64,000 nucleotides of DNA from an uncultured Chloroflexia bacterium (GCA_963712745.1 CAVQJC010000004.1:192001-256000); one strand, 5' to 3'; numbered from the stretch's first letter, positions 8,291-10,830 are shown. Numbers and translations: made by a program. The notes: a model not told the origin generated them from the letters alone.

Positions 8291-8624
8291 GTGCTCTCTC
8301 CGGTAAGGGTGGCTGGGCCGCCAATCGTAGTCGCCCGGCCGGTGGCGCGCTCGAAGGCATCGCCCGTGCGCTCCTTGCCGCCGAGTGCCGCGACTTCCCC
8401 ATCGATGGACTCGAAGGGGCCACCGGATACCCTCGAGCTGTTGATGGCGAGATCGACAGCGGAGGATGGCCCATGGCCCCGGTGGACAGTCTGGCACGCC
8501 TGCGCAAGGCACTCATCGACCCAGCCGAGCGGGGTGAGGCACCCGTGACCCAGGCCACGGCCGGTCGAGCAGAGCGGGGCCTCCGTCTGCTCCCGACTGG
8601 CTAGATACCCCAGGCCCGTAGCTG

Positions 8625-9840
8625 TCAAGCAGCAAGCTGCTCGAGGGGTCGACCCCAGGCCGTCTCCTCGTCGTAGCGGGTCCGATGCGTGAGGCAGCCG
8701 TGGAGGATGCCCACGAGCCTGTTGGCGAGCTTGCGACGGGCGGTCCTGGACGTGTGTGGTCCCGGGTCGTGGGCGTCGTAGTAGGCGCGGGCACCGGGTG
8801 ACGCGCTCAGGGCACAGAGGGCCCACTGGTACGTGGCATCGGCGAGCCGGCGGTTGCGCACGAGACGAGCCACGACGACGTGGCTCGTGCCCGATGCCCG
8901 CGTGATCGGGCTGGTGCCCGCGTAGTTGCGCCGGGCCCTAGCATCGGCATAGCGGTCGGGGGCATCCCCGAACTCCGCGAGCACCCGGGCGCCGAGGACA
9001 GCACCGAGTCCAGGCAGACTTCGCAGGATCTCGGCGTCCGGGTGACGATCGAAGGCATCGACGAGCTCGGCCTCGAGCCGGGCGATCTGCTCGCTCAAGG
9101 TCCTGATGACCGCCACGAGCGCGGTGGTGTTCGCCGCCTGGGCCTCGGCCACGAGCGCTGGAGCCGCCAGTTGTGGCGCCCGCAGGGCCGAGCGGATCTC
9201 GCTCGCCCGCTGCTCGAGGTTCCGCTGTCGGCCGCCCTTGCGCAGGAGCGAGACGGTCTTCGCCTGGCTGAGCTTGCGTCCGCGCACAGGATCGGGTGCC
9301 GCCATGAGCACCGCGGTCGCATCGGGGTGCGCGAGGTCCTCGAAGGCGACCATGGCCCCCGGGTAGTACTCGCGCAGGGCGCTGCGCAGCGCGTTGGTCT
9401 GGCGCCCCCGCGTCCAGATGAGGTTCTGGTGGGCCCGGGCGAGGACCTTGATGGCTGCCTGGAGCTCGCTGTCGGGGGCCACCCGACGATGATGCTGGCG
9501 GTCGGTGCGGACGAGATCGGCGAGGACCCGTGCGTCGCCCCGGTCGGACTTGGCCCGGCTCGTCGTATGGCGCTCGCGATATCTCGAGGCCGCGAGCGGG
9601 TTGACCGCATACACCCCGTACCCCGCCGCAAGCAGGGCGGTCACGAGCAGGCCCCGGTCGGTCTCGATGCCGACGATCACATCGGCCGGCTCGTCGGCAT
9701 GCTCACCGAGCAGCGCGTGCAGGCGGGCCACGCCCTCGAGGCCCTCGGGGATGCGCCTGGTCGCGAGCACCTCCCCCTCGCTGTCGAGCACGCAGACGTC
9801 GTGGTGCGTCTCGGCCCAGTCGATGCCGATGAAGATCGAT
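8625..9840 (-). CDS. IS110 DEDD transposase (bridge recombinase); start codon appears as ATCG (extra C)
   Basis: IFIGIDWAETHHDVC, IETDRG, KSDRGDA, LPGLG, TRASG catalytic Ser; frame open to 9836, GGAGGGAG RBS precedes ATCG at 9840. Confidence 0.92.
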
Positions 9841-9874
9841 CGCTCCCTCCATCTCCGCTTCGGAGCCGCAGGAG

Positions 9875-10050
9875 GCGGTCATGGCGCCCTAATGGACCAG
9901 TGCTCATCGGCACGTCACCCCAGCAGCCATCTCGACCGTCCTCGCCGACCGCCGGGGGCACGATCTAGCCGTGGGACTCAGACGTCCTGACTCGGCCAGT
10001 GCTCACCCGGTGGTCCGGCTCGGCGACCAGTCTGAACCCTCAGTCCGGTC
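9875..10050 (-). ncRNA. IS110 bridge RNA (5' stem-loop, target-binding loop, donor-binding loop)
   Basis: Two internal loops closed by stems, with guide segments matching the insertion target (GGCCGAGTC / GGCTAGA) and the donor junction (CTGGGGTGAC / TGGTCCATTAG); ends approximate. Confidence 0.8.
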
Positions 10051-10058
10051 TGGCCCAT

Positions 10059-10064
10059 TAGACT
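10059..10064 (+). promoter_or_regulatory. -10 box TAGACT of leaderless HAD gene, spanning the IS junction
   Basis: TAGACT 7 nt before GTG 10072; first T supplied by IS end. Confidence 0.6.
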
Positions 10065-10071
10065 CAGGCGT

Positions 10072-10830
10072 GTGAACCTCGCGACCGACCCTTCCGTCAT
10101 CCTGCTCGACGTGGGCGACACGATGGCCAAGGCCTATCCCTCCTGGCGGGACGTGTATGCCACCGTCTTCGCGCCCCACGGCATCCAGGCCGACGGAGAC
10201 GACTTCGAGGCCGCCTTCCGCGAAGCCTGGGCCGAGTGGGCACACGAAGGGCCCTTCGAGGCCACCGAGGAAGCCTCCTTCCAGCGGCTCATGGAGCTCG
10301 ACCAGCTGGTCTTCGACCGGCTCGGCTATCCGGATCTGCCGGAGTCGTTCTTCCGCGATGTCGACGCCGCGTTCCGGCAACGCTCCGCGTTCTATGTCTT
10401 CCCCGACGTCATCCCCGCGCTCGACGTGATGCAGGCAGCAGGCCTTCGTCTCGCCGTCGTCAGCAACTGGGGCTGGGCCGCCCCGGAGCTGCTGCAGACG
10501 CTGGAGCTGGCCCGCCACTTCGAGGTCATGAGCATCAGCGCTCGCGTGGGCTACCAGAAGCCGCACCCAGCGATCTTCGAGCACGCGCTCCACCTGCTGG
10601 GCGTGGGACCGGATGAGGCCATCCACATCGGGGACGATCCCCAGGCCGATGTCGTCGGCGCACGCCGAGTCGGCATCGAACCGGTGCTCATCGACCGCCG
10701 CGGCCGCATCGACACGCCCATCGGGGCCGGGTCTGGGACCGGTCAAGTGGCCCTCGTCCGCGACTTCTGGCAGTTGCTGGATCTGCTCGGGCTGGAGCGG
10801 CCGGCATCGATCGACGGGGATCAGGCCTGA
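10072..10830 (+). CDS. HAD-IA family hydrolase
   Basis: LLDVGDT motif I, VVSNW, KPHPAIF, HIGDD..ADVVGA. Confidence 0.92.
   Translation: MNLATDPSVILLDVGDTMAKAYPSWRDVYATVFAPHGIQADGDDFEAAFREAWAEWAHEGPFEATEEASFQRLMELDQLVFDRLGYPDLPESFFRDVDAAFRQRSAFYVFPDVIPALDVMQAAGLRLAVVSNWGWAAPELLQTLELARHFEVMSISARVGYQKPHPAIFEHALHLLGVGPDEAIHIGDDPQADVVGARRVGIEPVLIDRRGRIDTPIGAGSGTGQVALVRDFWQLLDLLGLERPASIDGDQA

Follow-up and report, generated by a model that had tools for sequence, protein, structure and literature searches.

The window analysed here is a stretch of 64,000 nucleotides from an uncultured Chloroflexia bacterium (GCA_963712745.1 CAVQJC010000004.1:192001-256000). The genome to which it belongs, G000, is assembled in 20 contigs (4.2 Mb, 84.6% complete). 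From position 10061 to 8603, on its minus strand, the window carries an insertion sequence (IS) of the IS110 family that is 1,459 bp long including both CT cores. The element contains a left end of 207 nt (10059-9853), a recombinase gene and a right end of 20 nt (8624-8605), and its left end very probably encodes a bridge RNA of the IS621 type. The components of the element and of its insertion site are the following.

8603..10061, minus strand: whole IS110-family element, delimited by the second copy in the genome (L002), by ends that are conserved in relatives and by the same-genus empty site.
10060..10061, minus strand: left core dinucleotide CT; none of the 35 left ends departs from C1 and T2, and the preceding base is variable.
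8603..8604, minus strand: right core dinucleotide CT; T-CT closes the right end in 27/27 non-redundant relatives in which this end was found.
10062..10069, minus strand: left target flank GCCTGAGT; the same-genus empty sites read ..(G/C)AGT-CT-AG..
8598..8602, minus strand: right target flank AGCCA (positions +1 to +5); +1 to +4 are complementary to the right target guide.
8605..8624, minus strand: right end, 20 nt; its last base, T8605, adjoins the core CT.
8625..9851, minus strand: recombinase reading frame of 408 codons with its stop at 8627-8625, recognised by Pfam, profile search and frame analysis.

The left junction of the element reads ..GCCTGAGT-CT-AATGGGCCA, continuing inside the element from the core as CT-AATGGG, and the right junction reads ..CCTGGGGTAT-CT-AGCCAG. 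The second copy, L002, is identical to the window from 10065 to 8601 (1,465 bp) save for two 1-nt indels, and its junctions are ..CACCGAGT-CT-AATGGG...GGGTAT-CT-AGGCGG. Among the relatives, CTAATGG opens the left end in 35/35 distinct left ends. Since this start is constant and the base before the C varies, the core is CT, as in IS621; TC was considered as a core and discarded because the base ahead of CTAATGG varies.

The insertion site was compared with nine loci of the same genus in which the orthologous HAD-hydrolase gene lacks the element. The sequence AGT-CT-AG is found at the matching spot in eight of the nine. One of these, L081, has an uninterrupted homologous site (..CCCCAGT-CT-AGCCATCCGGGGGCAGAC.., read by eye), and its sequence past AGT-CT, AGCCATCCGGGGGCAGACAGAAGCCCC, is homologous to the right flank of the window; the seven others likewise read AGT-CT-AG. 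Set against the empty site of L081 (..CAGT-CT-AGCC..), the occupied site (..GAGT-CT-IS-CT-AGCC) shows a single CT and no further duplication, and the insertion was therefore exact at this CT. The right flank from 8602 to 8200 gave no blastn match in the nine same-genus HAD loci.

A long left end, a short right end and a guide RNA on the left define the IS110 subgroup. All three are found here, and the element is an insertion sequence of this subgroup. The IS1111 elements share with it the recombinase family and the principle of an element-encoded guide RNA, and both subgroups have the same protein domains (as described in PMC11208160), so that the protein would also suit an IS1111-type element with a seekRNA in its right end. 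Those elements carry the RNA in their right end, which is long and has long sub-terminal inverted repeats. The right end measures here 20 nt against 207 nt for the left end, and it is the left end that holds the structured RNA with its guides; an IS1111-type element is extremely improbable.

The RNA was studied on an alignment of 35 distinct left ends, those of the window, of its own-genome paralogue L003 and of 33 relatives. These come from 54 loci with a blastn match to the left end, after removal of duplicates and of rows without a recognisable start motif; L067, L026, L031, L036, L021, L070, L019 and L044 lack the motif and L028, which is cut at its 5' end, was also left out. The parts of the RNA that were recognised are listed below, with the share of alignment cells that pair in each helix.

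9878..10056, minus strand: bridge RNA, as matched by a covariance model (143.1 bits, E 9.3e-33, model positions 1-176).
10025..10050, minus strand: 5' stem-loop GACCGG-a-CUGA-GGGU-UCAG-a-CUGGUC, present in the minimum free energy fold; in helix 2, both partners change in 5/5 pairs, and the share of pairing cells is 81%.
9999..10019, minus strand: 5' strand of the basal stem of the target loop, which ends in GCAC (10002-9999); 93% and 96% of cells pair in helices 3 and 4.
9944..9961, minus strand: 3' strand of the same basal stem, which starts with GUGC (9961-9958), recognised by covariation and fold.
9974..9987, minus strand: apical hairpin of the target loop, GGAC-GUCUGA-GUCC; in helix 5, 3/3 pairs are compensatory and 96% of cells pair.
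9926..9930, minus strand: 5' strand of the outer stem of the donor loop, AUGGC; in helix 6, 69% of cells pair and four pairs are supported.
9881..9885, minus strand: 3' strand of this outer stem, GCCAU, recognised by covariation and fold.
9900..9913, minus strand: apical hairpin of the donor loop, GUGC-CGAUGA-GCAC (GUGC 9913-9910, GCAC 9903-9900); the stem is invariant or nearly so in the 35 rows.

When the proposed structure is laid on the alignment, 87.2% of its 1,526 cells pair. Shuffling of columns gave 79.4%, with 0/500 shuffles reaching the observed value, and sliding of the partners gave 31-47%. As many as 25 of the 44 pairs change on both sides. The basal helix under the target loop comprises 16 pairs (columns 60-80 of the alignment with columns 123-142; 10019-9999 with 9961-9944 in the window), of which 11 are compensatory. 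In the larger segment of this helix 96% of cells pair and 9/14 pairs are compensatory. The outer stem GCAC/GTGC, proposed for this loop in a preliminary description of the locus, exists as pairs and is only the end of the basal helix. A separate hairpin CCGG-ACCA-CCGG was also considered and rejected, the stretch belonging to the basal helix. For the donor loop, the inner stem (helix 7) shows no variation in the 35 rows and its covariation is uninformative. The outer stem, described before as ATGGC/GCCAT, retains four supported pairs, and its A-U closing pair is kept in only 2/35 rows.

A covariance model, R1, was built from the 33 relatives, with the window and its paralogues left out. R1 finds the window at 10056-9878 with 143.1 bits (E 9.3e-33) over all 176 positions. 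It has only three matches in the whole 4.2-Mb genome and it matches 8 of 49 genomes of the genus, G000 being counted. A weak R1 match at L002:309-427 (25.8 bits) was set aside as chance, as it lies in coding sequence and both loops are missing (31 and 36 model positions). Two pieces of similar sequence occur elsewhere, one of 65 nt that is 86% identical to the start of the left end (L005) and one of 229 nt that is 79% identical to the 3' end of the element (L004); R1 found nothing in either. G000 also contains three more, distant IS110-family DEDD domains (PF01548, 64-72 bits) at C8:95500-95955, C20:452040-452462 and C1:109267-109704, and near these three loci R1 gave no significant match.

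Both loops of the RNA contain stretches that correspond to the DNA on either side of the core in the target site and in the donor formed by the element's own termini. These guides are the left and right target guides (LTG and RTG) and the left and right donor guides (LDG and RDG).

9989..9997, minus strand: LTG, GGCCGAGUC, 8 nt plus the core C; it matches 7/9 positions of the window target and 7/9 of the L002 target.
9965..9970, minus strand: RTG, GGCU plus the core-binding AG, the reverse complement of CT-AGCC.
9914..9923, minus strand: LDG, CUGGGGUGAC, compared with the right end CTGGGGTATC; 8/10 positions are identical and one more forms a G-T wobble with the bottom strand.
9889..9899, minus strand: RDG, UGGUCCAUUAG, complementary to the start of the left end CTAATGGGCCA; the part with family support is 9896-9889.

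In the window, RTG agrees with CT-AGCC at 6/6 positions and RDG is complementary at 10/11, its single mismatch being a G-U wobble. The strings quoted in the preliminary description all stand at the coordinates given there, as shown by the minus-strand reading and by the mapping of alignment columns to coordinates, and its match counts of 7/9, 7/7, 8/10 and 10/11 were reproduced. How often such matches arise by chance was assessed on the window alone by shuffling 20,000 times the 197 nt that follow the donor site. In 6,868 shuffles the left target was matched at 7/9 or better; 240 contained a 7/7 right-target complement, 2,059 a left-donor match of 8/10 or better and 21 a right-donor complement of 10/11 or better. 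All four guide matches in the right order were found in 0/20,000.

The loop columns of each left end in the family were also compared with its own flanks or right end, and the flanks were permuted 10,000 times among the loci. LTG agrees with the left target at 145/256 positions (32 loci x 8 nt; 70.6±7.6 in the permutations), RTG with the right target at 126/162 (27 loci x 6 nt; 59.7±5.8) and LDG with the left donor at 245/270 (27 loci x 10 nt; 217.0±4.1). None of the 10,000 permutations reaches any of these three values, and the covariation of guides and targets among homologous copies that the preliminary description had named as a check is present. The rows of L023, L029 and L024 stand one column off register; they were not realigned, and the observed score is lower for it. 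A comparison at eight same-genus R1 loci was discarded: four of them could be parsed, three of these four shared their flanks with loci already in the set, and RTG had been read one base off register. By position, the right target matches at +1 to +5 in 20-27 of 27 loci (74-100%) and falls to chance level from +6; the left target matches at -1 and -2 in 28/32 loci and the signal has faded by -7 and -8. LTG covers the core C and its next base is A, C or U, which usually leaves the core T without a partner on this side. RDG and the start of the left end form helix 1 and covary at position 6 (GC 32, CG 2, AU 1) and position 7 (GC 24, AU 7, GU 3). Family support for RDG extends over 7-8 nt (CCAUUAG plus a G-U) and there is none past position 8; of the 11 nt first assigned to this guide, the 10/11 agreement in the window holds and the family endorses the shorter segment.

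The paralogue L003 has a different LTG (GAGUACAGC), which its left flank GAGTACCAGC fits with one bulged base. Such a bulged DNA base is needed for the LTG fit both in L003 (1490-1600; GAGTAC-C-AGC against GAGUACAGC) and in L032 (1255-1360; GTTCA-T-GC against GUUCAGC).

The family test also bears on a simpler role for the left end, namely that it is a structured 5' leader controlling the translation or the stability of the recombinase, with flank matches that are coincidental. A hairpin, CUCCG-AAG-CGGAG, does stand immediately ahead of the ATG, and the LTG match of the window alone lies within chance. Coincidental matches also occur: part of the apical hairpin of the target loop, GUCUGAGUC (9983-9975), agrees with the left target plus core C at 8/9 positions and exceeds the real guide, a match taken as coincidence because relatives that have different targets keep this hairpin too. 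A leader role would not lead one to expect variable loop positions that follow the flanks of the element itself, as they do with 0/10,000 permutations for LTG, RTG, LDG and the handshake base described below. We regard such a leader as very improbable. A bridge RNA of the IS621 type, with two loops that read the element's own target and donor, had been claimed from the start and is borne out by the covariation, the permutations, the held-out model and the empty site.

In IS621, the two bases 3' of each core-binding AG pair, after strand exchange, with positions 6-7 of the other DNA, and full cognate handshake pairing blocked exchange, according to the account of Hiraizumi et al. (2024, PMC11208158). 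The corresponding bases of the window are these.

9963..9964, minus strand: handshake guide of the target loop, AU, the complement of the AT that precedes the right CT (donor positions 6-7).
9887..9888, minus strand: handshake guide of the donor loop, GG; its first base tracks target position 7 and forms in the window a G-T pair with T10062.

The donor-loop handshake base (G9888 in the window) makes a Watson-Crick pair with target position 7 in 25/34 loci and a G-U pair in 5. The mean in shuffles is 13.0 and 0/10,000 reach 25/34. The second handshake position gave no clear signal, with 12/34 loci pairing and 647/10,000 shuffles reaching this number. On the side of the target loop, A9964 is invariant in 35/35 left ends, donor position 7 is T in 27/27 donors found, and A9964 pairs with its own target in only 5/34 loci. 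Because this base and the donor T7 are invariant and pairing with the own target is rare, A9964 is a handshake base of the IS621 type and no target guide. The right guide had been read as GGCTAGA; GGCUAG (9970-9965) stands as target guide, and its last A belongs to the handshake.

The right end of the element also carries half of a putative promoter.

8623..8628, minus strand: -35 hexamer TTGACA, overlapping the stop codon and found in 21/29 relatives.

Over 29 relatives, the spacer from TTGACA to T-CT-AAT measures 17 nt in 10 loci and 18 nt in 19; it measures 17 nt in the window. On an excised circle, T8605, the core CT and AAT (10059-10057) would be joined into the -10 hexamer TCTAAT. In IS621, Durrant et al. 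(2024, PMC11208160) describe a promoter that is rebuilt across the joined ends; the split promoter fits this description and would start an RNA near 10050, downstream of the donor site. The position of this promoter makes 10050 or its vicinity the likely start of the transcript. No sigma-70-like site was found in the integrated form between 8500 and 10200. A circle junction was seen in none of the contigs of four runs; these contigs have no joints and speak neither for nor against a circle or an empty site in those samples.

By analogy with IS621, the element would excise as a circle, and the joining of its right and left ends would create the promoter (TTGACA, 17 nt, T-CT-AAT). This promoter would drive a transcript of ~175 nt that begins just downstream of the donor site. 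The DEDD/serine recombinase would bind this bridge RNA, and the donor guides (CUGGGGUGAC and CCAUUAG) would pair with the circle junction GGGGTAT-CT-AATGG. The top strands would then be exchanged at the CT core, after which the handshake base beside each core-binding AG would pair with the other DNA.

The recombinase contains both domains expected of the family, DEDD_Tnp_IS110 (PF01548; E 2.1e-39, profile positions 1-155 of 155) and Transposase_20 (PF02371; E 1.1e-14, profile positions 1-86 of 87). A single-sequence phmmer search of the PDB sequences with the window recombinase gave 0 matches. A profile of 17 relatives, from which L063 was excluded for its 2 stops, matches the transposases of IS621 (8wt6, E 2.3e-23) and of ISCro4 (9t56, E 2.2e-21). 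In the alignment of the motifs, profile against solved transposase, GiD corresponds to GID, gIEtd to IEATG, ksDagDa to KTDTVDA and raSGkk to YESGSS. The residues D11, E63, D103, D106, S320 and G321 (numbered on the 408 codons) are invariant in the 17 relatives; the catalytic residues given for IS621 are D11, E60, D102, D105 and S241 (in the description of PMC11208158), S241 forming with G242 the Ser-Gly of its Tnp domain. Two further features concern the start of the gene.

9850..9852, minus strand: ATG that opens the gene in the sister copy and is out of frame here, located by frame analysis and copy comparison.
9836..9838, minus strand: extra base (GCGATCGATC) that parts the ATG from the frame; it is absent from L002, and from the X1 and X2 contigs at 9838.

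In the window copy, ATG 9852 is off the recombinase frame by one base, and there is no in-frame ATG, GTG or TTG before GTG 9791, which itself lies past the GID motif. In L002 the gene starts with MEGAIVFIGIDW.. and the ATG is in frame, but past about codon 113 the frame is lost through an extra T near 9515. L003, the third related copy in the genome, is truncated at its 3' side, its similarity ending past window position 8938. An in-frame version of the gene start would read GCGATGATC at 9836-9840. Contigs from the DNA metagenome runs X1 and X2, which belong to two studies, have one base fewer at 9838, which places the ATG in frame, and they are like the window at 9515; an intact form therefore exists in nature. 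The sequence CGATCGATC recurs at the gene start of two loci from other records, L007 and L032, where four others have CGATGATC, and L007 is in frame thanks to an upstream ATG. A complete recombinase had been proposed for this element, which is doubtful for the window copy: as assembled, it has no normal start for its recombinase and is either inactive or misassembled at one base.

The state of the three copies raises the possibility that the bridge-RNA sequence is intact and the window copy, possibly every copy in G000, is a dead relic that makes no recombinase and leaves the RNA an orphan. The two full-length copies differ only by two indels, each of which breaks a different part of the gene. 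The match of L003 stops after 8938, the intact form of the X1 and X2 contigs lies elsewhere, and the other three PF01548 loci of G000 are distant. On the other hand, both discrepant sites are in GATC motifs. Consensus errors in long-read assemblies can arise at methylated sites such as GATC, and the indels could be methylation-linked errors of this kind or real variants. The identity of the two copies over the remainder of the 1,465 bp suggests recent activity, and the sharing of CGATCGATC by L007 and L032, the former in frame, also speaks against a relic. We hold a relic to be a serious possibility, somewhat short of an even chance.

The reading of the left end as a bridge RNA of the IS621 type is carried by what the sequences show: the fold, the agreement of all four guides and of the handshake with the DNA, the motifs of the catalytic residues, an insertion that is exact to a single CT, and promoter halves that are conserved. 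Several observations weigh against it. The LTG match of 7/9 is not significant taken alone, and position 7 of LDG (A9915) stands opposite an A of the donor bottom strand and is mismatched, in the window and in nine other rows. The window has T at position 7 of target and donor alike; the handshake bases can therefore also pair with their own DNA and cannot distinguish the two DNAs. Across the family, the donor-loop outer stem is a weak helix with 69% of cells paired, and the recombinase frame of the window copy has no in-frame start codon. Folded as single sequences, the RNA gives energies no better than those of shuffles. In the 208-nt fold that includes the donor site, CUAAUGG pairs with RDG (z -1.49). 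The 173-nt fold from 10050, an analysis proposed in the preliminary description, recovers the expected layout of 5' stem-loop, stems of both loops and long basal stem, with an energy that is not beyond shuffles (z -0.94). The RNA has a GC content of 68%, and in an RNA so rich in GC single-sequence folding does not discriminate; that the fold is more than chance follows from the comparative evidence, namely covariation, permutations and held-out model.

Curated models add a further point on the same side. In Rfam 15, a search over 8300-10400 returned 7 matches at E<=10, none to a bridge-RNA family, of which Rfam 15 may hold none. The RNA, for which an alignment to covariance models had been suggested, matches the family model R1 (143.1 bits) and has no curated counterpart among these matches. 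Finally, contigs from RNA libraries cover parts of the gene and both junctions, the X16 contigs bridging both, which attests presence only; such contigs cannot show a transcript end, and support for the RNA stays at the level of sequence.

The sole Rfam match above its gathering score over 8300-10400 is Ms_AS-4 (RF02464, 'Actinobacteria sRNA'), at 8937-9018 on the plus strand with 71.2 bits against a gathering score of 50. This family is an actinobacterial antisense sRNA, and its match falls within the recombinase gene, on the strand opposite the best-conserved part of that gene (..LPGLGAVLGARVLAEFGDAPDRYADA..) and outside the bridge RNA. RF02464 seems to model conserved IS110 transposase DNA.

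The closest system for comparison is IS621 of E. coli, as it is described by Durrant et al. (2024, PMC11208160) and Hiraizumi et al. (2024, PMC11208158). The two elements share a recombinase with a RuvC-like DEDD domain and a Tnp domain with an SG motif, a CT core, a long left end and a short right end, and an RNA in which a 5' stem-loop is followed by the target loop and then by the donor loop. They also share one handshake base 3' of each core-binding AG, and a -35 hexamer in the right end, with a -10 that would here be completed across the junction. In both, LTG and LDG read as the left top strand and RTG and RDG are complementary to the right top strand, core included, the core T being here usually unmatched on the LTG side. 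The differences are of degree. The window protein is distant, with no PDB match by phmmer and with the profile alone reaching IS621, and it is longer (~400 aa against the 328-residue IS621 chain). The target loop stands here on a 16-pair basal helix, the core T is usually unpaired with LTG, RTG reads 5 nt past the core and the GC content is 68%. The ISCro4 transposase (PDB 9t56) is the second solved IS110-family recombinase that was matched (E 2.2e-21), in a comparison of the proteins only.

Public genomes contain 71 related loci with a protein identity of 44-83%, in records titled Chloroflexia, Acidimicrobiia, Dehalococcoidia, Actinomycetes and others, and the genus of G000 has at least 49 species genomes; with these numbers, the earlier assignment to a poorly sampled lineage is not supported. 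Sequence near-identical to window positions 8400-10260 occurs in 20 of the 24 public runs listed (X1-X20), from 13 studies of sediment, estuary and soil metagenomes.

The landing sites of the element have a feature in common. At both insertions in G000 the opposite strand reads CATTAG-ACT, in which TAGACT stands 7 nt ahead of a start codon (window 10057-10074; left junction of L002). In the window this codon is GTG 10072 of a HAD-type hydrolase; in L002 it is the ATG of a membrane protein. Eight same-genus empty-site genomes (L079-L086) retain AGTCTAG upstream of the HAD gene. Three further free CNGAGTCTAGNC sites exist in G000 (L098-L100), and two of the three have TAGACT-N6/7-ATG/GTG. The unoccupied site of L098, CCGAGTCTAGCC at G000:C5:164251-164262, matches LTG over 7 contiguous bases and RTG over CT-AGCC. 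TAGACT looks like a -10 box of leaderless genes that is rebuilt by the element terminus. That the guides are tuned to such boxes, with the left terminus restoring the box, is a speculative reading that we consider rather unlikely. A full-text literature search found no paper joining IS110 bridge RNAs with promoters of leaderless genes. If the reading were true, the guide would have evolved toward a 'safe' landing site that spares the promoter, and insertion would keep the -10 box of the host gene and replace everything upstream of it.

Bridge RNAs were predicted by Durrant et al. in thousands of IS110 elements, including 85.7% of the IS110 group of ISfinder (as reported in PMC11208160), and as such RNAs were already predicted across IS110, existing knowledge is unchanged by the present case. 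It shows that a bridge RNA can be identified correctly in raw sequence, with all parts of the IS621 model, the handshake base included, visible by covariation alone. The IS110 bridge systems known so far gain a GC-rich clade, found in bacteria of sediments and estuaries and well documented by 35 distinct left ends with their matched targets and donors; it may serve to test the IS621 model independently in distant relatives and to supply orthologues.

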